NCBI GenBank assembly: GCA_964490395.1
Contig: CAZBAS010000006.1
Span: forward strand, 8,081-72,080
Direction of reading: 5' to 3'
From: an uncultured Candidatus Saccharibacteria bacterium
GTDB taxonomy: Bacteria; Patescibacteriota; Doudnabacteria; UBA920
DNA: 64,000 nucleotides
The notes beneath the pieces were generated by a model. That model saw only the letters and a list, made by a program, of their open reading frames with translations, ran no database searches and was not told the DNA's origin. The position numbers and the translations under genes are program-made. The number at the start of each line of letters is the position of its first letter. Positions within the stretch are counted from its first letter, which is position 1. Of the stretch, positions 4,770 to 61,230 are shown piece after piece.

Positions 4770-5351
4770 TTATCTTCCTGGTTTTTTTAAAATTTCATCG
4801 GTGAGCAAGCCTACATTTATTTTCTTTTCTGCAGAGTAGGGAATGAGTTTGTGCTCTCCAATTTCATCTTGTATGGCTGCAATTTGTTTTTTTGCTTCGC
4901 TTGGTTTTAGTTTGTCTATTTTATTGGCAACTATAACCACACGTCGGTCTGCTGCTTCGAGTAGCTCCACCATGGCAATGTCGTTATCGGTTAGGCCAAC
5001 TTTTGCGTCTATGATGAGTACGACTTTTTGTGGGTCAATGTCTGGGTTTTGAAGATACCAGTGGATGAGTTTGGTAATTATGTCACGGCTTTCCCAAGAG
5101 CCTTCTGCGTATCCATACCCAGGTAAGTCCACTAAGTAAAACGATTTATTTATAAGAAATAAATTTATTTCACGAGTCTTGCCAGGTCGCGGACTTGACC
5201 GTGCCAAGTCCTTCCGGCCCACGAGAGAATTTATAACGCTCGACTTGCCTACATTACTCCGGCCAATAAAAGCCACCTGGGGGGTGCCATCGTGTAGTAT
5301 TTCGTCATCGCCAGTAAGGCCTTTTTTAAAATCTGCGGATCGAATTATCAT
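4770..5351 (-). CDS. engB: ribosome biogenesis GTP-binding protein YihA/YsxC (EngB)
   Basis: Has the GRSNVGKSSVINSL P-loop and DLPGYGYA, matching the EngB family. The start is set at MIIRSADF to give the typical length of about 194 aa. Confidence 0.8.
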   Translation of the reverse strand: MIIRSADFKKGLTGDDEILHDGTPQVAFIGRSNVGKSSVINSLVGRKDLARSSPRPGKTREINLFLINKSFYLVDLPGYGYAEGSWESRDIITKLIHWYLQNPDIDPQKVVLIIDAKVGLTDNDIAMVELLEAADRRVVIVANKIDKLKPSEAKKQIAAIQDEIGEHKLIPYSAEKKINVGLLTDEILKKPGR

Positions 5352-5678: not shown

Positions 5679-7454
5679 TCATAGCTTTTGTTTTTCCCAC
5701 AGTTCAAAGAAGCGCCCTTTCTTTTTATACAGCTCGTCAAAGCTTCCTTGCTCTATAAGTTTACCTTCTTCAATCACCAAAATTTTGTCCATCTCTTTTA
5801 TGGTGGTAAGACGATGGGCTATGACTATAGCAGTAACATTTTCAAAAAATAGGTGCAGCGAGTCTTTTATTTTTGCTTCTGACTCTATGTCTAGGTGCGA
5901 GGTAGCTTCGTCGAGCAAGAGAATTTGTGGCTCCTTAAATACTGCCCTGGCTATGCCAAGTCGCTGTTTCTCGCCCCCAGAAAGTTTTACACCTTTTTCG
6001 CCAATGAGGCTTTCTACGCCTTCAGGGAGTTTAGACAAGAAATCAGTTACGTGGGCTATGTCTAAAGATTTGGTAAGTAGATTGTTATTATCTTTCTGTT
6101 CGTCATTTGCTAAGACTATATTGTCTTTAAGGGAAAAATTAAACACCTCTGTGTCTTGCAACACTACTGCCACATATTTAAAGTAGTCAGATTTTTTAAT
6201 GTTTTGAAGGGTAGTGCCGTCGAAACTAATACTTCCATCAAAATTCTCATATTCTTTTAAGAGCAGTTTGAATAAGGTAGATTTGCCCGCCCCGGAAAGT
6301 CCGACAACACCAATCTTTTCGCCCCGGCGTATGGTAAACGAGATGTCCTGCAATACCACATTGTCTCCGTAGCTAAAAGTAACATGTGCCACATCCAACT
6401 GTTGCCAGTTTTGGGGAAATGCTATCTTGCCACTCATATCCTCTATAGTGGTTGGTGTCTTGAGCAGGGCTTGTAGTCTGCTTATGGAGAATTTCGCGAT
6501 GGTTATATCTTGGCCCAGGTCGGAGAGGTTGTTCGCTAGGTCGCGGATTGTGGTAAAGTAACCATTAAATAATATCAAAAACCCAATTTCGTACCGGCCG
6601 TGAATTACCCCAAAAATAATATAGATAAGTGTGGCAATGCGAATGGAATGCCCCCACAAGCCAAGCGCAGTCCCGCGTATCTGAAACAGTAATATTCTCT
6701 TTTTGACCTTCTGGTAGAAATTATCTATTTCATCGGATACTCTCCGGTGTAAGGGTCCTGCAAGTTCCATTACTTTTACTGTGCGAATATTACTTATGGT
6801 TTGCACTTCAAGCCCGTTCACGGTTTCCGATTGCACGCTGGCTGCGTGTGCACTTCGCGCTGCTGGTTTTGTAAGAAAATACGAGAGCGTATAGTGCACC
6901 GCAATAAATACTATAATAATTGCAGCGGTAAATGCGTTTACCTTCGCGACTATATAAATGGTTCCGCCGAACGTTACGAGTATGGTAATAATGGAATTTA
7001 GCCACAATCTTATAATTTGCTGAACGCCGTTTGTTCCATTGCTTATGCGCCGCAACTTATTGCCCGTGTTTTCTTTTTCATGCCAGGCCATGTCAATCCT
7101 GAACAGCTGCTGGAGGCTTTTTAGTTCCACATCAAAACCCATCCGTTCTATGGCATAACCACTATATATTCTGGAAAAATATACCGCGACAAATTCCCAT
7201 GCTACGGCAGCGATGAGTAACAGTAAAACGCGAATAATTTCTGATTCGTGTGCGGGTGCGTCTTTGCTGAGCAGCGTGACTACTTCCGCAAACGCATATA
7301 CGGGATAGAGTCTGCTCAGGTCGCGCGAAGCTATGAGCATGCTGAGGAAAAACAGTTTTATCTTAAATGGACGGGCAAAGACCCACACATCTCGTATGAG
7401 TTGAAGCAGGGGGTAGTCAGGGGCTTTTTCATCTGGGTTGGCGTATCGGGGCAT
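5679..7454 (-). CDS. ABC exporter, fused permease/ATPase (MsbA/MdlB-like)
   Basis: Six-TM N-terminal domain. The C-terminal domain has Walker A GLSGAGKST, the signature LSGGEKQRLGIARA, and Walker B ILLLDEATS. Confidence 0.85.
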   Translation of the reverse strand: MPRYANPDEKAPDYPLLQLIRDVWVFARPFKIKLFFLSMLIASRDLSRLYPVYAFAEVVTLLSKDAPAHESEIIRVLLLLIAAVAWEFVAVYFSRIYSGYAIERMGFDVELKSLQQLFRIDMAWHEKENTGNKLRRISNGTNGVQQIIRLWLNSIITILVTFGGTIYIVAKVNAFTAAIIIVFIAVHYTLSYFLTKPAARSAHAASVQSETVNGLEVQTISNIRTVKVMELAGPLHRRVSDEIDNFYQKVKKRILLFQIRGTALGLWGHSIRIATLIYIIFGVIHGRYEIGFLILFNGYFTTIRDLANNLSDLGQDITIAKFSISRLQALLKTPTTIEDMSGKIAFPQNWQQLDVAHVTFSYGDNVVLQDISFTIRRGEKIGVVGLSGAGKSTLFKLLLKEYENFDGSISFDGTTLQNIKKSDYFKYVAVVLQDTEVFNFSLKDNIVLANDEQKDNNNLLTKSLDIAHVTDFLSKLPEGVESLIGEKGVKLSGGEKQRLGIARAVFKEPQILLLDEATSHLDIESEAKIKDSLHLFFENVTAIVIAHRLTTIKEMDKILVIEEGKLIEQGSFDELYKKKGRFFELWEKQKL

Positions 7455-8453: not shown

Positions 8454-9443
8454 CTAAACTAACTTATGTTTGATTAAAATGCTTTTTACCTCGTCGCTCG
8501 TTTTTGCAGTGTAGAGTTCTTCTCGAACCTCTGCTGCACCGTCGAAACCAGATAGGTAAATTTTGTAAAAACGTTTGAGCGGCTCAAAAGGTTTTATGCC
8601 GGTGAAGTGTTTTTCGTATTGCTCCGCGTGGAGGAGGAGTAGCTGCGCTCGTTCTGCTACTGTGTGCTCTTGGGAGCTTTTTTCAAATACCCAAGGATTC
8701 TGAAAAATACCCCGCCCTATCATAACCCCATCACAGCCTGTTGTTTTGGTTTTTTCGTTTCCCTCTGCTCTGGTGAGTACGTCTCCGTTGCCAACAATGG
8801 TTGGTCTTGTTTCGGGAGTTGTTTGGGCGTGTATAAATTTTACAATTTCTGGCATGAGCTCCCAGTGAGCTGGCACTTTAGACATTTCTTTGCGAGTTCG
8901 AAGGTGGACGGAAATGTTTGCTGGCTGCGCTTTTAGCAATGTTGCTATCCAGTTTTCCCAGTCTATTTTGGTGTCGCCAATGCGAATTTTAACCGATACG
9001 GGTATGGTGCTTAGGTTTCCATGGGCTTCTGTAGCGCCTTTCCATGTGGCCTCTACTATTTCCTTGGCAAGTTCTGGGTTTTTATAGAGTGCTGCGCAGG
9101 CTCCGCCTTTCATCTCCGCAGGCTTGGGGCAGCCCATGTTTATGTCTATGCCGTCAAAGCCTAGTTCACGTACGAACTTTGCGGTTTCGTAAAACTTTTC
9201 TGGTTTTGCTCCAAATATCTGTGCCACGAGGGGAGTGGGGCCAGCTTCCTTTTTTAGGTGGTACATAAGGCGCTCTCTGCCGGTAGTATTCATGAGACCA
9301 TCTGTGGAAACGAATTCCGTAAAATAGACGTCTGGTGCAGCTGCCTTGGAAACCACATGCCTAAAAGCGACGTCCGTGACGTCGTACATGGGCGCAAGTA
9401 TAAAAAATGGCCTGGGCAACTTCTCCCAAAAACCTCGGTTCAT
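8454..9443 (-). CDS. dus: tRNA-dihydrouridine synthase
   Basis: Has FFILAPMYDVTDVAFR and GFDGIDINMGCP, the TIM-barrel motifs of the Dus family. Confidence 0.85.
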   Translation of the reverse strand: MNRGFWEKLPRPFFILAPMYDVTDVAFRHVVSKAAAPDVYFTEFVSTDGLMNTTGRERLMYHLKKEAGPTPLVAQIFGAKPEKFYETAKFVRELGFDGIDINMGCPKPAEMKGGACAALYKNPELAKEIVEATWKGATEAHGNLSTIPVSVKIRIGDTKIDWENWIATLLKAQPANISVHLRTRKEMSKVPAHWELMPEIVKFIHAQTTPETRPTIVGNGDVLTRAEGNEKTKTTGCDGVMIGRGIFQNPWVFEKSSQEHTVAERAQLLLLHAEQYEKHFTGIKPFEPLKRFYKIYLSGFDGAAEVREELYTAKTSDEVKSILIKHKLV

Positions 9444-9488
9444 TAAGGTAGTATAATGTAAAGTCCGCTATCTTGTCACCGCGCATCC

Positions 9489-10175
9489 CTATTTTACAGG
9501 TTTAAGTTTTAGTTTAAATTTTCTACGATTTTCTGGCCCCAACTTTATTTCTTCGGCCAGGCCCTCTGCAATAAGATTGTCCCATGCGCCAACAGCAAGG
9601 CGGTTTGCCCCGACAGAGTGTAATTCTTTATTAAAAAATGCCAGGCTATATGCGCCCATCTCAAGTATTCTTTTTGTTCCATACTTTTGGCGAGTGAAGC
9701 TTTTTTCCTCATCGTCAGTTTCTGATATGTTGCCTATGGTTCTATTAAAAATAATGACCGGTAGGTGACTATATGGGTAGTCTTTTAGATATTCATCCTC
9801 AAGACTAATAGTGCCGTACCCAAGTTGGTCTTCTCCGAGCATCTCATAAAAGTAAACTTGTGTGCGTAAACTGCTACCAGGCTCAATACGGTGTTGGGAC
9901 GCCGTGTAGGTTGTTACCCCGTCATTGCGATCAATCTTATAATGAGAATCAAAATTGCCAGGAACATACGGTTCGTTTTCGGTCACAAAGTATCCGCTTT
10001 GCCATTCGAAAAAACTAATTGCCTGCTCAGGTATGCTGGTGCTGTCTATTTCAGTAATTTCGCCAGGAAAGTATGTCTCGAAGGTTGACTTCGAAGAATC
10101 CTTGTAGACCTCCCTAGGCTCGTATGGCTTTTCGCTTGTCTCTCTAGTTTGGTATTGATGTGGTTTTTCGGTCAT
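9489..10175 (-). CDS. hypothetical protein
   Basis: Intact 228 aa ORF. No recognisable motifs. Confidence 0.45.
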   Translation of the reverse strand: MTEKPHQYQTRETSEKPYEPREVYKDSSKSTFETYFPGEITEIDSTSIPEQAISFFEWQSGYFVTENEPYVPGNFDSHYKIDRNDGVTTYTASQHRIEPGSSLRTQVYFYEMLGEDQLGYGTISLEDEYLKDYPYSHLPVIIFNRTIGNISETDDEEKSFTRQKYGTKRILEMGAYSLAFFNKELHSVGANRLAVGAWDNLIAEGLAEEIKLGPENRRKFKLKLKPVK

Positions 10176-13057: not shown

Positions 13058-13618
13058 ATGGTAAAGAAACCAGAACCACAGTCCAAGTTCGAATTGGCTG
13101 CAGTAAAGTTTACTAATTGGGTTGGGTCTACGTCTTCGCTTGTCGTCCATACCTTAGCTTTTATAGCCAGTTTTATATTGGTTATATTTGGCGTGGCGTT
13201 AGATAAAGTACTCCTTGTACTTACGACCGCAGTGTCGCTGGAGGCAATTTATCTTGCTATATTCATTCAAATGACAGTGAACCGCAACACTGCAAGTTTG
13301 GAAGAAGTGGAAGAAGACATAGATGAAATCCAAAAAGACATTGATGAAGTCCAGGAAGACGTGGGCGAAATTGCCGAAGATGTAGGAGAAATTGAAAAAG
13401 ACGTTGATGAAATTCAGGCGGACATTGATGAAGTGCAAAAAGATATAGACGAAGTGCAAAAAGACGTTGACGAAATTCAAGAAGACGTAGAAGACATTAC
13501 AGAAGGCGAAACTGCAGAAGAGCTAGCCGACCGCAAAACTCGCGAGTCCTTAGATAACATAGAAGGCACCCTCGCAAGGCTCATAGAAGAAATAGAAAAA
13601 ATAAAAGCGCAGAAATAA
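13058..13618 (+). CDS. DUF1003 family membrane protein with C-terminal heptad-repeat coiled coil
   Basis: Has two TM helices and the SLEAIYLAIFIQMTVNRN motif characteristic of DUF1003/COG4420. The ATG at 13058 follows AAAGGA. The C-terminus is an acidic 7-residue repeat array. Confidence 0.7.
   Translation: MVKKPEPQSKFELAAVKFTNWVGSTSSLVVHTLAFIASFILVIFGVALDKVLLVLTTAVSLEAIYLAIFIQMTVNRNTASLEEVEEDIDEIQKDIDEVQEDVGEIAEDVGEIEKDVDEIQADIDEVQKDIDEVQKDVDEIQEDVEDITEGETAEELADRKTRESLDNIEGTLARLIEEIEKIKAQK
13301..13512 (+). repeat. about ten imperfect 21 bp tandem repeats inside the DUF1003 gene, encoding the heptads (D/G)E(I/V)(Q/E)(K/E)D(I/V)
   Basis: gatgaa(a/g)t(c/g)ca(a/g)aaagac(a/g)t(t/a) recurs head-to-tail. 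The protein repeat reads DIDEVQK / DVDEIQE. Confidence 0.7.
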
Positions 13619-18501: not shown

Positions 18502-20289
18502 ATGAAAACATTTAAACATATAAACAAAAAATACTTAGTGGTAAGCGCGCTTGTAATTGCAGGCGCGCTTTTGGTGTGGAGTTTTTATTGGGTTGGGGTG
18601 TTTTCCGGTTCCCCTCCTAAGGTAGGAGGGGCTAGGGGTGGTATGAAAGAAAATGCTACCGTAATCCATCCTGCCACGGTCATGCAACCGGATCTGTACC
18701 CAACTTTGAATAAAGTGGATGAGATCCCTGCTGCTACTGAGAAAGTCTACGGCGGTATAGTATCCCACCATTTCTACATGGAAGAGGATATAGGGAAGCT
18801 GTTTTTACAGTTACGCCAGCAGAATCCATCTGTGGTGGTAATAGTGGGTCCGAACCATTTTAATGCAGGCAATGCAGACATACAAACTTCTACTGCTTCG
18901 TATACTACTCCCTTTGGTCAGCTCGATGGCGATCTGCCGCTCGTTAGTCGCTTGGTCGCAGACGGCGCTGCAACTCATGAGGAGCTCGCTTTTGAGCGCG
19001 AACATTCCATAGGGGCACTTGTTGGTTTTACAAAGAAAGTATTTCCAAATGCTAAATTACTTCCCATTATCATGCGTCGCAACGCAAGTCCTGGCCGTAC
19101 GGAACAACTTGCAGCTGAGCTTGAAAAAATACTTCCCCAAGATGCGCTCGTCCTGGCGAGTGTAGATTTTTCGCATCACTTGGATAGGTTTGCAGCTGGC
19201 TTCCACGATAGCCAGTCAGTGGCTGCGTTGCTTTCTGCGGACTTCAACCGCATTCGCAGTCTAGAAGTAGATAGTCCGCAGAGTTTAGAAGTGCTTATGC
19301 GCTACCTGGAGAGCCGGGGAGCACTGCATATGGAATATAAAAATACGAACCAGGCAGTGTATGGCGGTAACTTGATGTCCGATGACGTAACCAGCTATGT
19401 GTTCGCGAAATTTACGTCTTCTTCCAGCCCTCCCCCTCAAGAGGGGTCTCCCTCCTCTTCCTCCCCTAATATAGGGCCCGCTACGCCGGAGCGTAAGCGA
19501 GGCGAGGAGGCTAGGAGGGGTATAATTTCGAACATCGTACCACCCCTAACCCCTCCTATCCTAGGAGGGGGAAAAGACACAGCCACCCTCCTACATCTTG
19601 GGATATTCAATGCAGGCATGCTTGAATCTAACGAAGGCAAGGCCCTCTACGCACTTGGTGGCCCAGAAAATAATTTCCTCCGCGGCGGAGATTTAAAAGT
19701 TATTGGTACGAATAATAAAACAAGTTGTAACTCAGCGCGCATTCCAGCACTTGAGCGCTATAAGATCAATGTATTCAACTCACAGTCATGCGCAAATACC
19801 TTTGTGTTTGGCTCAGAAAATAGAAATTATAATGTAGGTTTTATTTCTATAGCTCAAGGTGAAAACGTAAGCAAAGCAGTAGCTATCCAAAAAAAGAATT
19901 ACGCTTACGTGGCTGTTCAGGTTCCCGCTAGTGCCGAAGCCCAAAGTGCCATCGATTACGGCGCAGATGCAGTCTTTATTCAAGACGGTGCAGCAAAAGT
20001 TGAACTATACAAAAACAAACCCATCATTCATCACCCGGCATCAAATACATCAGGTTTCAGTACTGGCGTAGTATTTAATCCAGCAGGTGCATCAAATATC
20101 GCAGAAGCTTCCTCTGATTCCTCCCCTAAAATAGGGGAGGCTAGGTGGGGTATAAAACTGTACACCTTCCCATACCAACTAAAAAACAATCAACTCACCC
20201 GCCTCGATATTTCTGCAAGACTAAAATCCTGTAAACAAATTTTAACCGGACTAAAAAATGTAGATGGTTGCTCTGCAAGTATCCAGTAA
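18502..20289 (+). CDS. membrane-anchored MEMO1-family (AmmeMemoRadiSam protein B-like) domain fused to a C-terminal domain of uncertain (possibly CapA/metallophosphatase-like) affinity
   Basis: Shows the N-terminal TM helix and the Memo-like motifs VIVGPNHF, TPFG, EHSIGA and SVDFSHH. The C-terminal segment AIDYGADAVFIQDG...LYKNKPIIH is CapA-like. The ORF is interrupted in-frame by three GC-rich palindromic elements. Confidence 0.6.
   Translation: MKTFKHINKKYLVVSALVIAGALLVWSFYWVGVFSGSPPKVGGARGGMKENATVIHPATVMQPDLYPTLNKVDEIPAATEKVYGGIVSHHFYMEEDIGKLFLQLRQQNPSVVVIVGPNHFNAGNADIQTSTASYTTPFGQLDGDLPLVSRLVADGAATHEELAFEREHSIGALVGFTKKVFPNAKLLPIIMRRNASPGRTEQLAAELEKILPQDALVLASVDFSHHLDRFAAGFHDSQSVAALLSADFNRIRSLEVDSPQSLEVLMRYLESRGALHMEYKNTNQAVYGGNLMSDDVTSYVFAKFTSSSSPPPQEGSPSSSSPNIGPATPERKRGEEARRGIISNIVPPLTPPILGGGKDTATLLHLGIFNAGMLESNEGKALYALGGPENNFLRGGDLKVIGTNNKTSCNSARIPALERYKINVFNSQSCANTFVFGSENRNYNVGFISIAQGENVSKAVAIQKKNYAYVAVQVPASAEAQSAIDYGADAVFIQDGAAKVELYKNKPIIHHPASNTSGFSTGVVFNPAGASNIAEASSDSSPKIGEARWGIKLYTFPYQLKNNQLTRLDISARLKSCKQILTGLKNVDGCSASIQ
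18607..18645. repeat. GC-rich palindromic element, short version, in-frame in CDS (encodes SGSPPKVGGARGGM)
   Basis: ggttCCCCTCCtaaggtaGGAGGGGctaggggtggtatg. Confidence 0.7.
19425..19572. repeat. composite GC-rich palindromic element cluster in-frame in CDS (CCCCCTCAAGAGGGG hairpin, then the long-version element, then a CCCCTCCTA-tcc-TAGGAGGGG hairpin)
   Basis: ccctccccctcaagaggggtctccc ... cctcccctaatatagggcccgctacgccggagcgtaagcgaggcgaggaggctaggaggggtat ... cccctcctatcctaggagggg. It encodes SSSPPPQEGSPSSSSPNIGPATPERKRGEEARRGI...PPILGGG. Confidence 0.7.
20119..20155. repeat. GC-rich palindromic element, short version, in-frame in CDS (encodes SDSSPKIGEARWGI)
   Basis: tCCTCCCCTAaaaTAGGGGAGGctaggtggggtataaa. 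Confidence 0.7.
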
Positions 20290-23294: not shown

Positions 23295-23415
23295 AGTACA
23301 ATTTTCAATTTTTAATTTTACAATTTTTAATGAATTAGCAAATATCTAAACATTGAAGTTTTAAAATGGTAAATTGGAGATTTTAAATTGATTGAAAATT
23401 GTAAAATTGAAAATT

Positions 23416-25035
23416 ATGGCTTCATCTAAACGCGTAATTATCATCGGTTCTGGTATTGGTGGGCTCGGGTCAGCGAACTTGCTGGCTAAGCTTGGCTATG
23501 AAGTAACGGTGCTGGAGAAAAATGACTATCTGGGTGGCCGCGCCGGCCTTATAGAGGAAGCAGGGTACAGGTTTGATAAGGGTCCTTCTTGGTACTTAAT
23601 GCCGGACGTGTGGGAACATTATTTTGGACTGCTTGGGAAAAAGGTAGAAGATTATCTTACTCTCAAGCAACTCAGTCCAAGCTATAGAATATTTTTTGAA
23701 AGCGATCGTCATTCCCGATCCAGTCGGGAATCCAGTGTCGCCATGTCAGCGACACAGCTTAACGGCCCCGATGTGAAATCGGGGCTGGATCCCCGCGGGC
23801 GCGAGGATGACAATGCTCACTTTGTAGACATGTATGCAGATGTAGAAAAGACTGCTGCGTATTTTGAAAGTCTAGAAGCAGGCGCAGGGGAAAAGTTTAA
23901 GGCGTACTTGAAAATGACAGCGCATGCCTATGAAACCGCAAAAGAGCTGTTCATGTACAAGAACTATGACTCCGTGTTTGACCTCTATGACAAGCGGGCA
24001 TCCAAAGCAAAGCTATCACCGCACCTTCTCGGTTCCATGCATCGCTACGTGAGCAAGGAATTTAAAAACGAACGCATACAAAAAATACTCCAGTACCAAC
24101 TAGTATTTCTTGGCGGCTCGCCCTATAACACTCCTGCGCTCTATTCCATTATGAACCACATAGACTTTAACATGGGCGTGTTTTATCCTATGGGTGGCAT
24201 TTATGAAATTATTAACGCCCTAGTCAACATTGGTCGTGAGTTTGGAGTTACGTACAAAACGAATGCAGCAGTTAAACGGATTGTGGTAACGGGAGGAAAA
24301 GCGAGTGGAGTAGAGCTTGAAGATGGGACCGTTATTGAATCCGACTTGGTTGTATCAAATGCAGACATCTACCACACAGAAACAGCGTTGCTTGCACCGG
24401 AGTATCGAGAACACACAGAAAAATACTGGCAGAAGCGCACGCTTGCTCCTTCGGCGTTCATTATGTACTTAGGCATTAAAGATAGGGTGCCTGAACTTAC
24501 GCACCACAATTTATTATTTGCCAAAGACTGGGCGCAAAATTTTGCAGATATATTTGACCATCCTAAATTTCCCGAAAAGCCTTCAGTATATGTGTGCGCG
24601 CCAAGCGTAACCGATGACACTGTAGCACCGGCAGGAAAAGAAAACCTCTTCGTGCTCGCGCCCATTGCCCCGGGCCTCGAATATACTTCTGAGTTTTTAG
24701 AGCAGTATGGAAATAATCTCCTTGACTGGCTTGGCCGCGAAATGGGCGTGGAAAATCTGCGAAGCCGAGTTGAGTATAGAAAAGAATATTGTGTAAAAGA
24801 TTTTGCTGCAGACTACAACAGTTTTAAAGGTACAGCCTTGGGTCTGGCTCATACGTTACGTCAGAGTGTATTTCTTCGGCCAAATAATATAAGCAAAAAG
24901 GTACAAGGGTTGTACTACGTTGGTGCTGGCACTAACCCTGGCATTGGTATGCCCATATGTTTAATTTCTGCGGAGTTGCTTGTTAAGCGACTCCTTGGTA
25001 ATGCAACTGCGGAGCCGCTCTTAAAACTTGAATAG
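23416..25035 (+). CDS. crtI: phytoene desaturase (CrtI-family FAD-dependent oxidoreductase)
   Basis: Has the N-terminal VIIIGSGIGGLGSANLLAKLGYEVTVLEKNDYLGGRAG dinucleotide-binding motif. The CrtI-family C-terminus is present (GLYYVGAGTNPGIGMP). The ATG at 23416 was chosen. It contains an in-frame GC-hairpin cluster. Confidence 0.85.
   Translation: MASSKRVIIIGSGIGGLGSANLLAKLGYEVTVLEKNDYLGGRAGLIEEAGYRFDKGPSWYLMPDVWEHYFGLLGKKVEDYLTLKQLSPSYRIFFESDRHSRSSRESSVAMSATQLNGPDVKSGLDPRGREDDNAHFVDMYADVEKTAAYFESLEAGAGEKFKAYLKMTAHAYETAKELFMYKNYDSVFDLYDKRASKAKLSPHLLGSMHRYVSKEFKNERIQKILQYQLVFLGGSPYNTPALYSIMNHIDFNMGVFYPMGGIYEIINALVNIGREFGVTYKTNAAVKRIVVTGGKASGVELEDGTVIESDLVVSNADIYHTETALLAPEYREHTEKYWQKRTLAPSAFIMYLGIKDRVPELTHHNLLFAKDWAQNFADIFDHPKFPEKPSVYVCAPSVTDDTVAPAGKENLFVLAPIAPGLEYTSEFLEQYGNNLLDWLGREMGVENLRSRVEYRKEYCVKDFAADYNSFKGTALGLAHTLRQSVFLRPNNISKKVQGLYYVGAGTNPGIGMPICLISAELLVKRLLGNATAEPLLKLE
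23706..23825. repeat. cluster of three to four GC-rich perfect hairpins inserted in-frame in crtI (a sequence family distinct from the CCCCTCC elements)
   Basis: ATTCCCGA-tccag-TCGGGAAT; GTGTCGC-catgtca-GCGACAC; GCCCCGAT-gtgaa-ATCGGGGC; CCGCGGGCGCG. Together they encode about 40 extra residues (SDRHSRSSRESSVAMSATQLNGPDVKSGLDPRGRED). Confidence 0.5.
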
Positions 25036-27961: not shown

Positions 27962-29470
27962 ATGGTTCATCCTTCACGCGTAAGAAAATTGAACACAGCT
28001 GAAAGTGGTACGGAAGGTCCGGTTGTATATTGGATGAGCCGAGACCAGCGCGTGGCTCACAATGCAGCGCTGGCTTACGCAGCACAACTCGCCCGCGAAT
28101 ATAATCAGCCACTCATGGTGGTTTTTTGCCTACGCAAAAAATTTGCCCACGGAACAGAGCGCCTTATAGATTTCATGCTCACAGGCCTAGAGGAAGTGGA
28201 AGCAGACCTCGTAAAGAAAGATATCCCATTTTACTTTTTGCTCGGAAGGCCGGAAATAGAAATTCCAAAATTTATACACGAGCATAGTGTTTCTGCTTTG
28301 GTTTCAGATTTTTCTCCGCTGAAGACTAATCGTCAGTGGAAAGAGCATGTATCCGAAAGAATCAAAATTCCATTGTATGAAGTGGACGCCCACAATATAG
28401 TGCCGTGCTGGGCTGCAAGTCCTAAGCAAGAATTTGGCGCATATACCATTCGCCCAAAAATACATAGGCTCCTTTCTGAATATCTGCAAGATTTTCCAAG
28501 ATGGAATTATACCCCACCTAACCTCCCCTATATTAGGGGAGGAAAGAATGCCGATAGTGGATCCATTGATGCAGACGCCTCCTCCGGTACCCCTCCTAAG
28601 ATAGGACCCGCTACGCTGGAGCATAAGCGAGGCGAGGGAGCTAGGGGTGGTATGGATTGGAGCCACATTCGATCCCAAATAGAAGTAGATACTTCTGTGC
28701 CAAAAGTGGACTGGATTGTGCCAGGGGAAAAAGCAGCACATAAAATGGTAAAACATTTTATTGCCCATAAATTAAAAACCTATAACGAAAATAGAAACGA
28801 CCCCACTAAGGATGTTCAGTCCAATCTTTCTCCCTATCTTCATTTCGGCCACATATCGAGCGAGCAAGTAGTCTTAGAGGTTCTCAATGCCACAGGCCTC
28901 AGTCTTGCCGAAGTGCTAGAAAAACATACTGCAAGCACAGAGCCACTTAAGCTATCGGCCACATCGTTTATTGAAGAGCTTGTAGTGCGCAAAGAACTTT
29001 CCGATAATTTTTGTTTCTACAATAAATTTTACGATTCAACAAAGGGGTTTCCTGCGTGGGCGCTAAAAACTCTGAATGAACATCGCGGTGATGTGAGAGA
29101 ATACACATATACGCTCAAGCAGTTAGAAGAGGCGAGCACGCACGATGACCTATGGAATGCTGCGCAATTGGAAATGGTTAAGCGGGGTAAAATGCACGGC
29201 TACATGCGCATGTACTGGGCCAAGAAAATATTTGAATGGAGCAAAACACCAGAGAAGGCCGTAGAGCATGCTATATACTTGAACGACAAATATTTTTTGG
29301 ACGGACGTGATCCAAACGGTTATACAGGCATAGCCTGGTCCGTTGGTGGCGTGCACGACCGCGCGTGGTTTGAGCGGTCTATATTTGGTAAAATTCGCTA
29401 CATGTCTTACGGCGGCGCGAAAAGTAAATTTAAAATTGCTGAATATATACAAAAGATCAATGCACTATAG
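27962..29470 (+). CDS. phr: deoxyribodipyrimidine photolyase, class II CPD photolyase
   Basis: The N-terminus VVYWMSRDQRVAHNAAL and the C-terminus GYTGIAWSVGGVHDRAWFERSIFGKIRYMSYGG are class II photolyase signatures. It contains an in-frame insertion of GC-rich palindromic elements. Confidence 0.85.
   Translation: MVHPSRVRKLNTAESGTEGPVVYWMSRDQRVAHNAALAYAAQLAREYNQPLMVVFCLRKKFAHGTERLIDFMLTGLEEVEADLVKKDIPFYFLLGRPEIEIPKFIHEHSVSALVSDFSPLKTNRQWKEHVSERIKIPLYEVDAHNIVPCWAASPKQEFGAYTIRPKIHRLLSEYLQDFPRWNYTPPNLPYIRGGKNADSGSIDADASSGTPPKIGPATLEHKRGEGARGGMDWSHIRSQIEVDTSVPKVDWIVPGEKAAHKMVKHFIAHKLKTYNENRNDPTKDVQSNLSPYLHFGHISSEQVVLEVLNATGLSLAEVLEKHTASTEPLKLSATSFIEELVVRKELSDNFCFYNKFYDSTKGFPAWALKTLNEHRGDVREYTYTLKQLEEASTHDDLWNAAQLEMVKRGKMHGYMRMYWAKKIFEWSKTPEKAVEHAIYLNDKYFLDGRDPNGYTGIAWSVGGVHDRAWFERSIFGKIRYMSYGGAKSKFKIAEYIQKINAL
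28521..28655. repeat. GC-rich palindromic elements in-frame in the photolyase gene (CCTCCCCTA-tat-TAGGGGAGG hairpin plus the long-version element)
   Basis: acCTCCCCTAtatTAGGGGAGGaaag ... ccCCTCCtaagataGGAcccgctacgctggagcataagcgaggcgagggagctaggggtggtatg. It encodes ...SGTPPKIGPATLEHKRGEGARGGM. Confidence 0.7.
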
Positions 29471-36774: not shown

Positions 36775-36822
36775 GACTCGTCCCTAGATATAAGTAATTA
36801 TATTTAGAGACGAGTTTTTTGT
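36775..36822 (+). terminator. intrinsic terminator (ACTCGTC ... GACGAGT stem with a 26 nt loop, followed by T6)
   Basis: gACTCGTCcctagatataagtaattatatttagaGACGAGTtttttgtatttt. It would terminate a short upstream transcript (a 49 aa ORF or an ncRNA). Confidence 0.5.
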
Positions 36823-36831
36823 ATTTTCTTG

Positions 36832-36923
36832 TCCCCCTCCTAAGATAGGAGGGGCTAGGGGTGGTATGAGTCATTCGTAATAAATTTCGTACCCCATCTG
36901 ACTTCCCCTATCTTAGGGGAAGG
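36832..36923. repeat. intergenic copies of the GC-rich palindromic element (a complete short version plus an inverted partial copy)
   Basis: tCCCCCTCCtaagataGGAGGGGctaggggtggtatg (near-identical to the in-gene copy at 18607) and cTTCCCCTAtctTAGGGGAAgg. Neither lies in a coding region. Confidence 0.7.
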
Positions 36924-36963
36924 ACAGGACAAACATATGTGCTATTAATAATCGTATATATCT

Positions 36964-60050: not shown

Positions 60051-61147
60051 TGGTAGCGACAGGAGCCAAACGCATGCAGATACAACCAGAAGACTACAAT
60101 TTTGAGTTTCCCGACTCTCTTATTGCCCAAAGCCCTGCGCATCCTCGTGATAGTGCGCGGCTTTTGGTTTACGACAGAAAAACCAGCACAGTTGCATTGG
60201 ATATATTTAAAAATCTGGTACAGTACCTACCTCCCCGCGCAGTTATTGTATTTAATGAAACCAAAGTTATTCCGGCGCGTTTCTATGCGTATAAGCCCAC
60301 TGGCGGTAAGGTGGAGTTGCTATATACAGGTAAATCGGAAAAAACTTTTGACGCCCTTGCAAATAGATCGCTAGTAGTCGGTGATGTACTTTGTTTTCGA
60401 TCCGGTTCCTCCCCTAAGATAGGGGAGGCTAGGAGGGGCATGAACCAAGAGCACGATATTACCGTTACGAAAAAACTATCCAAAGGATACCGTTTTACAT
60501 CGTCATTCCCCATTTCTCAGTTATTCTCTATTCTCGACAGGCACGGTGTTACACCTATACCGCCGTACATAAAAAATAATACATTTGCGGAAAAGAAACT
60601 TCGCACAGAGTATCAGACTGTGTTTGCGAAGTCGCAAGGCTCAAGCGCAGCACCAACTGCGAGTCTACACTTTACGAAAAACCTTCTGGCGAAATTTGAG
60701 AAAGCGGGAATAGCTACCGAGTATGTAACATTGCATGTGGGGCTCGGCACCTTCGCACCGCTCACGGAGAAACATCTGAAAACCAAAAAACTTCATAGCG
60801 AGTACTATGAAATTACGCCATCTGTTGCAAAGCGGCTGGAGCGCTATAAAAAACAGGGCAGGCCAATAGTTGCTGTGGGGACGACCGTGGTCCGTACACT
60901 CGAGTCCGCTGCTTCGCGTGCGGGAAAGCTTGGTAAGCTTTCCGGAAAAACTGAAATATTTATTTACCCGCCGTATAATTTTAAATTTGTAGACAGCCTC
61001 ATTACCAACTTTCATGTACCCAAGTCCAGCCTTATGATGCTGGTAGCAAGTTTAATTGGTCGTGAAAAGCTGCTTGAGTTGTACGTCTTGGCGGTAAAAA
61101 AGAAGTTTAGGCTGTTTTCGTTTGGTGATGGCATGCTCATAAGATAG
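60050..61147 (+). CDS. queA: S-adenosylmethionine:tRNA ribosyltransferase-isomerase
   Basis: Has QSPAHPRDSARLLVYDRKT at the N-terminus and conserved QueA motifs throughout. One GC-rich palindromic element is inserted in-frame. Confidence 0.85.
   Translation: MVATGAKRMQIQPEDYNFEFPDSLIAQSPAHPRDSARLLVYDRKTSTVALDIFKNLVQYLPPRAVIVFNETKVIPARFYAYKPTGGKVELLYTGKSEKTFDALANRSLVVGDVLCFRSGSSPKIGEARRGMNQEHDITVTKKLSKGYRFTSSFPISQLFSILDRHGVTPIPPYIKNNTFAEKKLRTEYQTVFAKSQGSSAAPTASLHFTKNLLAKFEKAGIATEYVTLHVGLGTFAPLTEKHLKTKKLHSEYYEITPSVAKRLERYKKQGRPIVAVGTTVVRTLESAASRAGKLGKLSGKTEIFIYPPYNFKFVDSLITNFHVPKSSLMMLVASLIGREKLLELYVLAVKKKFRLFSFGDGMLIR
60407..60443. repeat. GC-rich palindromic element, short version, in-frame in queA (encodes SSPKIGEARRGM)
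   Basis: tCCTCCCCTAagaTAGGGGAGGctaggaggggcatg. Confidence 0.7.
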
Positions 61148-61178: not shown

Positions 61179-61230
61179 CCCCGGGTTCCCCTCCCCAGGC
61201 GGGGGGAGAGGCCAGGAGAGAGGTTGAATC

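Follow-up and report, generated by a model that had tools for sequence, protein, structure and literature searches.

An in-frame insertion in the phytoene desaturase gene of a Patescibacteria-like host, probably a miniature palindromic repeat with Ssn-related ends

We analyzed a 64-kb stretch of DNA from a Patescibacteria-like host (contig CAZBAS010000006.1, positions 8,081 to 72,080; hereafter the window), in which a crtI-type phytoene desaturase gene carries a GC-rich, hairpin-filled insertion. The gene encodes 539 aa and is part of a carotenoid cluster with genes for a polyprenyl synthase, a phytoene synthase and a UbiA-type prenyltransferase; its product has thousands of homologues among phytoene desaturases, with a prevailing length of 500–505 aa. 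A reading of the letters without database searches (the sequence-only reading) had singled out this stretch as a palindromic invader. Our results suggest that it is most probably one copy of a miniature palindromic repeat, in which two inverted Ssn-related hairpin motifs surround a 49-nt, hairpin-rich spacer. Such motifs are known from work on the Ssn nucleases, where the repeat called NTS, CGTCATTCCCGCGMAVGCGGGAATCYRG, contains the Neisseria dRS3 palindrome and the broader class is termed the Ssn-related motif (SRM) (PMC11893778). The crtI element is thus a further example of a known repeat phenomenon in an unusual host, and not a new type of system.

The features of the locus are listed below. 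L002 and L008 are the crtI loci of a close and a more distant relative, and R1 is a covariance model of the repeat ends, introduced in the next section.

23416..25035, plus strand: crtI-type phytoene desaturase gene, host of the insertion; 539 aa from the ATG at 23416; Pfam Amino_oxidase and NAD_binding_8; PDB 4rep and 4dgk
23706..23813, no strand: insertion of 108 nt (36 codons) compared with the empty allele, defined by aligning the DNA to L002 (empty) and to L008 (87-nt related insert, same site) and by orthologue loop lengths
23707..23735, plus strand: left NTS/SRM-type end, CGTCAT TCCCGA-tccag-TCGGGA ATCCAG; R1 match at 23704-23737, 37.1 bits, E 1.4e-8
23736..23784, no strand: element-specific spacer of 49 nt with two perfect hairpins (23735-23755 and 23765-23785); no other copies in the window
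23785..23812, minus strand: right NTS/SRM-type end, inverted, minus-strand TGTCAT CCTCGC-gccc-GCGGGG ATCCAG; R1 match at 23783-23815, 36.2 bits, E 2.7e-8
23626..23701, no strand: upstream mosaic flank; sliding identity to L002 down to 0.76-0.80, enriched in sites that the window shares with L008 and not with L002
23814..23865, no strand: downstream mosaic flank; identity to L002 0.73-0.84; 8/16 informative sites group the window with L008

The insertion and its hairpins

The crtI stretch is a true in-frame insertion. In the closest relative (P0002; loci L002–L007; 96% nucleotide identity) the gene has exactly 108 nt fewer at this site, and a more distant relative (P0001; L008–L010; 81% nucleotide identity) has a related insert of 87 nt at the identical site. 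Aligning CrtI orthologues, the check that the sequence-only reading had proposed, defines the insertion and shows that such a loop is not general: it is absent in 117 of the 119 aligned sequences. The loop between the flanking conserved positions has 5–7 residues in 108 of them and 12 in nine, and is long only in the window (42 residues) and in P0001 (37 residues). The same reading was therefore right about an in-frame insertion, although the roughly 40 residues that it assigned to 23706–23825 come down to 36 codons at 23706–23813. These borders are ambiguous by a few nucleotides, as the flanking codons also differ between filled and empty alleles. Local GC is 0.61 in the insert compared with about 0.44 nearby. 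An assembly artefact is ruled out because independent assemblies carry the same sequence; one of them, L001, encodes the same CrtI protein.

The three perfect hairpins that had been described are present as stated: hairpin 1 (ATTCCCGA/TCGGGAAT, 23711–23731; 8-bp stem, 5-nt loop), hairpin 2 (GTGTCGC-N7-GCGACAC, 23735–23755) and hairpin 3 (GCCCCGAT-N5-ATCGGGGC, 23765–23785), as is the GTCAT...ATGAC bracket at 23708–23811. The accompanying CCGCGGGCGCG tract is also there, but it is not simply a tract; it is a fourth hairpin (23789–23808, with an 8-bp stem that includes one T.G pair) and the mirror partner of hairpin 1. These two hairpins are the inverted ends of one element of 104 nt, laid out as GTCAT-hairpin-ATCCAG ... 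CTGGAT-hairpin-ATGAC, with ends of 28 and 27 nt. Like a miniature inverted-repeat transposable element (MITE), it is small, has terminal inverted repeats and lacks coding capacity of its own. The view that the three hairpins form one family does not hold, since only hairpin 1 and the overlooked right-hand hairpin belong together, as NTS/SRM-type ends. The two middle hairpins make up a spacer private to the crtI element, and with up to three mismatches allowed none of hairpins 1–3 has further copies beyond chance in the window.

The layout of the ends was suggested by a weak match in a permissive Rfam scan, in which the Wolbachia family WsnRNA46 (RF02625) aligned at full length to the minus strand (18.7 bits, below the gathering threshold of 65.3 bits; E 0.26–0.4) and shared GUCAU...GGGAUCCAG...CUGGAUUCC...AUGAC with the element. 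At gathering level, Rfam gave only three tRNAs in the whole window and no match at the element. For a model of the ends themselves, we collected 99 distinct ends from other organisms by pattern, filtered them for stable folds and aligned them (alignment A3), and R1 was built on this alignment. Five of the eight stem pairs in A3 have changes on both sides (122 cells), and sliding the pairing partners abolishes this compensatory signal. Run unfiltered over the window, R1 matches both element ends, each at full length. Elsewhere in the window it gives nothing better than E 0.4, save for one weaker match (E 0.24) that overlaps the left hairpin on its opposite strand. The minus-strand match at 23783–23815 is what identifies the CCGCGGGCGCG tract as the second end. 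In sequence and structure together (GTCAT, 8-bp hairpin, ATCCAG), both ends belong to the NTS/SRM family, and since they match a family found in other genomes, the earlier assignment to a class of palindromic, mobile-looking repeats is sustained.

The element folds strongly as RNA (-56.8 kcal/mol, z = -3.9 relative to shuffles) and as single-stranded DNA (z = -4.4 for the plus strand and -5.3 for the minus strand). Folding predictions have each strand, when single-stranded, form its own end hairpin. The right-hand hairpin has its full 8-bp stem on the minus strand only and is mismatched in the sense transcript.

Related elements and their link to Ssn nucleases

An enzyme that acts on these motifs is SsnA, a 94-aa GIY-YIG nuclease that binds the NTS hairpin and cuts adjacent to it, on single-stranded DNA only and on one strand only, and that does not bind RNA (PMC11893778). 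Repeats resembling the NTS are reported in Wolbachia, Rickettsia and Sphingomonas, among others, and they often flank ssn genes (PMC11893778). Among the papers that our literature search covered, we found no description of NTS/SRM repeats in Patescibacteria, and no naming of a link between Rickettsia palindromic elements (RPEs) and Ssn.

The family occurs in many bacterial phyla, Patescibacteria among them. A pattern search for the layout of the element matched 37 viral contigs, most of them on both strands, and a narrower pattern matched at least 120 loci in species-representative genomes. Among the genome matches listed are Alpha-, Beta- and Gammaproteobacteria, Nitrospirales, Rickettsiales, Coxiellaceae, Babeliales, Dehalococcoidia and Melainabacteria, as well as six loci from Patescibacteria (L049, L050, L061, L087, L097 and L139); the typical unit in them is GTCATTCCCGCGAAAGCGGGAATCCAG, then 25–55 nt, then CTGGATCCCCGC...GCGGGGATGAC. 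Scanning metagenomes for GTCATYCCCGA-N4-6-TCGGGRATCCAG gave at least 120 loci and showed the CCCGA/TCGGG variant to be common; the closest hairpin among the matches listed, in L279, is one base off that of the window. The right-end subtype, CCTCGCG...CGCGGGG, recurs in L063, L081 and L128, and some Patescibacteria contigs have 4–7 family ends per 8 kb. In an Azospirillaceae metagenome-assembled genome (MAG), five near-identical 81-nt doublets form a head-to-tail array with a 124-nt period (L075, 2459–3041).

In the fetched loci, single-domain GIY-YIG open reading frames (ORFs; Pfam PF01541) of about 100 codons lie directly between or beside inverted ends. Four metagenome contigs (L168, L247, L262 and L198) have the order inverted end, GIY-YIG gene, inverted end, with the CCCGA/TCGGG variant. 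In these four the upstream end reaches into the first part of the ORF, and some of it would be translated from a start codon lying further upstream. Between the same ends, the crtI element holds a 49-nt spacer instead of a gene of about 300 nt. Because the same ends bracket a GIY-YIG gene elsewhere, it has the anatomy of a non-autonomous, MITE-like derivative, and it looks like a miniature version of the gene-carrying units. Homologues of the L247 nuclease, 65–70% identical, are named from Candidatus Moranbacteria, Woesebacteria, Wildermuthbacteria and "Patescibacteria group"; thus, the Ssn-like enzyme family exists in the Patescibacteria phylum.

Within this genome, by contrast with that wide distribution, the crtI copy is alone in what we searched. 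R1 finds a single doublet and no solitary end in the window and nothing in a further 10 kb of the same organism (L288), about 74 kb in all; a regular expression for the end architecture finds only the crtI copy in the window, and the 21.6-kb locus of the relative has no further copy besides the crtI site. The many copies per genome that mark NTS/SRM repeats were not seen in these ~74 kb, nor was a repeated family with a conserved peptide in several genes, as in RPEs. The proposed search for other copies of the hairpins therefore came out negative for ~74 kb of this genome and positive across bacteria, where similar ends are very many. Because there is no second copy in this genome's sequence, the status of the crtI element as a repeat rests on other genomes, and the suggestion that the genome holds more than one class of palindromic invader is unproven.

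The sequence-only reading was correct that the insert does not match the CCCCTCC family, which is a real, multi-copy family of unrelated sequence. Its heptamer occurs 14 times in the window compared with 4.1 expected, and its units of about 45–50 nt (GGTTCCCCTCCTAAGGTAGGAGGGGCTAGGGGTGGTATGA), each with an internal palindrome, are unrelated to the NTS-type ends. They lie at the following positions.

18598-18646: CCCCTCC-family unit
19535-19577, minus strand: CCCCTCC-family unit
20107-20155: CCCCTCC-family unit
28507-28544, minus strand: CCCCTCC-family unit
28577-28625: CCCCTCC-family unit
36821-36869: CCCCTCC-family unit
36886-36929, minus strand: CCCCTCC-family unit
60395-60443: CCCCTCC-family unit
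61184-61206: CCCCTCC-family unit

A different kind of repeat lies at 13299–13529, where about 9–11 tandem units with a period of 21 nt (60–79% identity) look like a 7-residue acidic coding repeat.

History of the locus and effect on the protein

Comparison of the window and L008 inserts shows that the ends are conserved and the interior is not. The L008 spacer has diverged and has a different hairpin, GCCGC-N7-GCGGC, in the place of hairpin 3. Its left hairpin has been lost with the ORF kept. In L008, where the left end has decayed, R1 detects no part of the orthologous insert but its right end (27.4 bits). The two inserts share an irregular right-stem pair and the downstream codons DDN-A/T-H, and so descend from one insertion, which must be old because it is common to a lineage of 81% identity. 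The weak fold of the L008 copy (z about -2.2) is consistent with this age. The L002 lineage has an ancestral-type four-residue turn, NSNE, at the site, where outgroups have GTGE and GAHE. Window and L002 are 97–98% identical along the gene, but only 73–84% identical in the 60–90 nt on either side of the insert. Sites that group the window with L008 make up 13 of the 30 informative sites in these flanks, compared with 12 of 201 further downstream in the gene, more than ~200 nt from the insert. The tract is a mosaic of ~250 bp and points to replacement of the allele through homologous recombination, and not to clean excision or a recent insertion. The difference in presence or absence between relatives is best explained by homologous recombination of an element-carrying or an element-free allele, and the crtI copy may be a relic or a recombination import.

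These observations bear on the idea of an active invader, that is, a second palindromic class now spreading in this organism, with the crtI copy one of many. The ends are intact (R1 scores of 37 and 36 bits, with both stems able to form), Patescibacteria contigs dense in such ends do exist, and presence or absence differs between strains of 96% identity. Nonetheless, we consider active spread unlikely: one doublet and no solitary end were found in the 64 kb and the further 10 kb of this organism, nor any elsewhere in the 21.6 kb of the relative, the stretches searched have no ssn gene, the insert is old, and the polymorphism lies in a mosaic tract and not at a clean empty site. Because it is solitary and sits within that ~250-bp tract, the crtI copy in this genome is probably not an active invader.

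The neighborhood of crtI has further peculiarities of its own. Immediately 5' of the gene lies an AT-rich spacer (23300–23415; GC 0.16–0.25) that contains a 30-nt inverted repeat with 90% complementarity (23307–23336 and 23386–23415), ending at the crtI start codon. In L008, a GATase/Peptidase_C26 gene (9430–9996) sits between crtB and crtI; the crtB–crtI gap of the window lacks this gene and has an AT-rich spacer of ~100 nt in its place.

A role at the RNA level, in which the hairpins would act in the crtI mRNA or as a WsnRNA46-like sRNA, for example in stability or translation control, is still less probable than active spread. It would account for the strong RNA fold, for the full-length, weak RF02625 match on the minus strand and for the hairpin of other sequence that L008 keeps at the position of hairpin 3. 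However, the Rfam score falls far short of the gathering threshold, and the conserved ends lie on opposite strands, with the full right stem in antisense only, so that no transcript carries both in good orientation. Moreover, SsnA does not bind RNA (PMC11893778), and the L008 copy lacks the left hairpin with the ORF still kept.

Several observations suggest that the insert is expressed as part of the protein. It is open in the used frame only (one of six frames). Across 133 family elements, 46% of strand and frame combinations are free of stop codons, which would make an in-frame, stop-free insertion roughly a 1-in-7 event, and selection would keep such events only. The window and L008 inserts (108 and 87 nt) differ by 21 nt, a multiple of three, and because this difference preserves the frame, the insert appears to be translated and not removed. 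An AlphaFold2 model (119 sequences) has a mean predicted local distance difference test score (pLDDT) of 88.9. Residues 99–133 (H99 to N133), which coincide with the element, have pLDDT <50 and no secondary structure, and lie between the strands at 90–94 and 136–139; alignments of the protein to PDB 4rep break at the insert position. By the predicted structure, the element occupies a surface loop, a site compatible with the fold as expected of an RPE-like insertion, and, again as expected, it is in frame in a conserved coding gene and absent from orthologues. We infer that the insert would be transcribed and translated as a disordered surface loop of 36 residues that the enzyme tolerates, as is the case for Rickettsia palindromic elements.

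Removal of the insert from the product, by way of a small intron, a translational bypass or an intein-like segment that would leave a normal protein, is very improbable. That the insert is compact, highly structured and GC-rich and lies inside a conserved enzyme might bring such a segment to mind, but it is open in frame, its two lengths of 108 and 87 nt are both multiples of three, which would be needless if it were removed, Rfam gives no ribozyme or intron family match, and 36 residues are far too short for an intein. Conservation of the frame and the size of the insert led us to reject all three readings. Less credible still is the origin in place of a functional protein loop, specific to the lineage, whose hairpins would be incidental, for although the site is a variable CrtI loop (nine orthologues have 12 residues instead of 6), the window and L008 share DNA hairpin ends and no peptide motif, the ends match a cross-phyla family at E of about 1e-8, and the loop is modeled as disordered.

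A screen of spanning-ORF lengths for other in-frame copies was confounded by long spurious ORFs in high-GC genomes, and the only domain-supported in-frame doublets that it gave are in L050 and L114. In L050, from a Candidatus Parcubacteria MAG, an NTS-type doublet (6951–7037) is in frame in an ORF for queuine tRNA-ribosyltransferase (TGT). Alignment of that ORF to the PDB passes directly from query residue 132 to 190, while the structure is continuous there; past residue 262 the ORF seems to be frameshifted, and it may be a pseudogene or an assembly error. In L114, from a Rickettsiales MAG, a doublet (5167–5259) is in frame in a YgfZ/CAF17-like ORF and matches WsnRNA46 with 42 bits (E 1.6e-5). 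This locus ties the Rfam WsnRNA46 'sRNA' family to the same palindromic repeat.

Comparison with known systems and possible mobility

The closest known counterpart of the crtI element is the NTS/SRM–Ssn system (PMC11893778), with which it shares CGTCAT, an 8-bp hairpin of the ATTCCC...GGGAAT type, the CCAG that follows and the arrangement in inverted pairs that elsewhere flank small GIY-YIG genes. It differs in the eighth stem pair and the loop (CCCGA-N5-TCGGG), in its intragenic position and Patescibacteria-like host, and in having no ssn gene or further copies in ~74 kb. The dRS3 repeats and NIMEs of Neisseria (units of 50–150 bp bounded by dRS3) likewise consist of a short variable unit between inverted ATTCCC...GGGAAT palindromes, and the raised diversity and mosaicism beside the crtI element recall those of genes adjacent to dRS3/NTS (PMC11893778). 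However, the loops differ (N9 on the left and ATCCCC-N8-GAGGAT on the right, compared with N8 in dRS3), and NIMEs form intergenic arrays whereas the crtI element is a single intragenic unit. RPEs and the Wolbachia palindromes resemble it as palindromic repeats that lie in frame in housekeeping or metabolic enzymes at fold-compatible sites (PMC10969869), and GTCAT...ATCCAG ends occur in Rickettsiales loci, including the in-frame doublet in the YgfZ-like ORF. RPEs are longer (~150 bp), number tens of copies per genome and have a conserved peptide; the crtI element is one copy of 104–108 nt. Its score also lies far under the WsnRNA46 family threshold.

Two further classes share the general plan of the element. 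REP/BIME and REPIN repeats, with their IS200/IS605-like RAYT enzymes, also form inverted doublets of short hairpins and involve a small nuclease that acts on single-stranded DNA and whose gene is flanked by the same repeats. The enzyme there is of the HUH type and not GIY-YIG, and REPs are extragenic and species-specific, unlike the crtI-type motif, which is conserved across phyla. Bacterial MITEs such as Correia/NEMIS and ERIC are likewise small, non-coding, bounded by terminal inverted repeats and occasionally inserted in frame, and they have a larger gene-carrying counterpart, for which the units with a GIY-YIG gene in metagenomic contigs would be the candidates here; in contrast to them, the crtI element has no visible target-site duplication and involves no transposase from a known IS family.

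The published properties of SsnA suggest how such doublets might move. As single-stranded DNA, each strand would offer one hairpin in the orientation for Ssn binding, at its own 5' side of the element, so that cuts made just 5' of the hairpins would coincide with the element's outer borders. By analogy, this could lead to movement, to modulation of recombination, or to trimming of incoming DNA during recombination, in each case by way of single-stranded DNA. It is conceivable, and we put it forward tentatively, that inverted Ssn-type doublets are true miniature mobile elements, which Ssn GIY-YIG nucleases would move, or spread by recombination, via single-stranded DNA in many phyla, Patescibacteria with their reduced genomes among them. 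In that case the Rickettsia and Wolbachia protein-coding palindromes would belong to the same family, the crtI insert would be a non-Rickettsiales case of protein-loop evolution by this route, and Ssn would be the long-sought agent of RPE spread.

A number of results speak against the main reading, in which the insert is a miniature repeat with Ssn-related ends, or limit the evidence for it. The published SRM string, HGTCWYN(0-2)YYVSBRHN(0-5)WNVSBRGN(0-2)RNCYNB, has 0 matches in the window, the element included; the left stem is CCCGA/TCGGG with a 5-nt loop, whereas the string expects CCCGCG/CGCGGG with a 4-nt loop. Both the loop length and the eighth stem pair of the left end depart from the published NTS, which is more than the single mismatch allowed, and neither hairpin (left ATTCCC-N9-GGGAAT, right ATCCCC-N8-GAGGAT) conforms to the dRS3 form ATTCCC-N8-GGGAAT. 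The pairing of the 8-bp stem in 98.9% of A3 cells is inflated, as the collection patterns pre-define the family and the ends were fold-filtered, although the compensatory changes are not inflated in this way. Neither a target-site duplication nor a clean excision footprint was seen when filled and empty alleles were compared, there is no direct repeat at the borders, and the exact insertion borders cannot be fixed from that comparison. The doublet is the only one in the ~74 kb searched, and hidden Markov models made from the Ssn-like ORFs of the fetched loci found no ssn gene in the window, L288, L008 or L002; recognition by a resident nuclease is unproven for these reasons. Units of the order end, GIY-YIG gene, end were found in metagenomic contigs and none was seen in ~74 kb of this genome. 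That the insert is translated and the enzyme active is an inference. Finally, for all members of the family, transposition by Ssn nucleases is a possibility that the authors of the SsnA study only raise (PMC11893778).

In summary, the crtI locus joins three separate fields, namely the dRS3/NTS repeats of Neisseria with their Ssn nucleases, the in-protein palindromes of Rickettsia and Wolbachia, and the repeat biology of Patescibacteria. This connection rests on one polymorphic locus, whose allele is filled, decayed or empty depending on the close relative, and which is well suited to testing the idea of Ssn mobility. For genome annotation, our results imply that hairpin variants which are common escape the published SRM search string.

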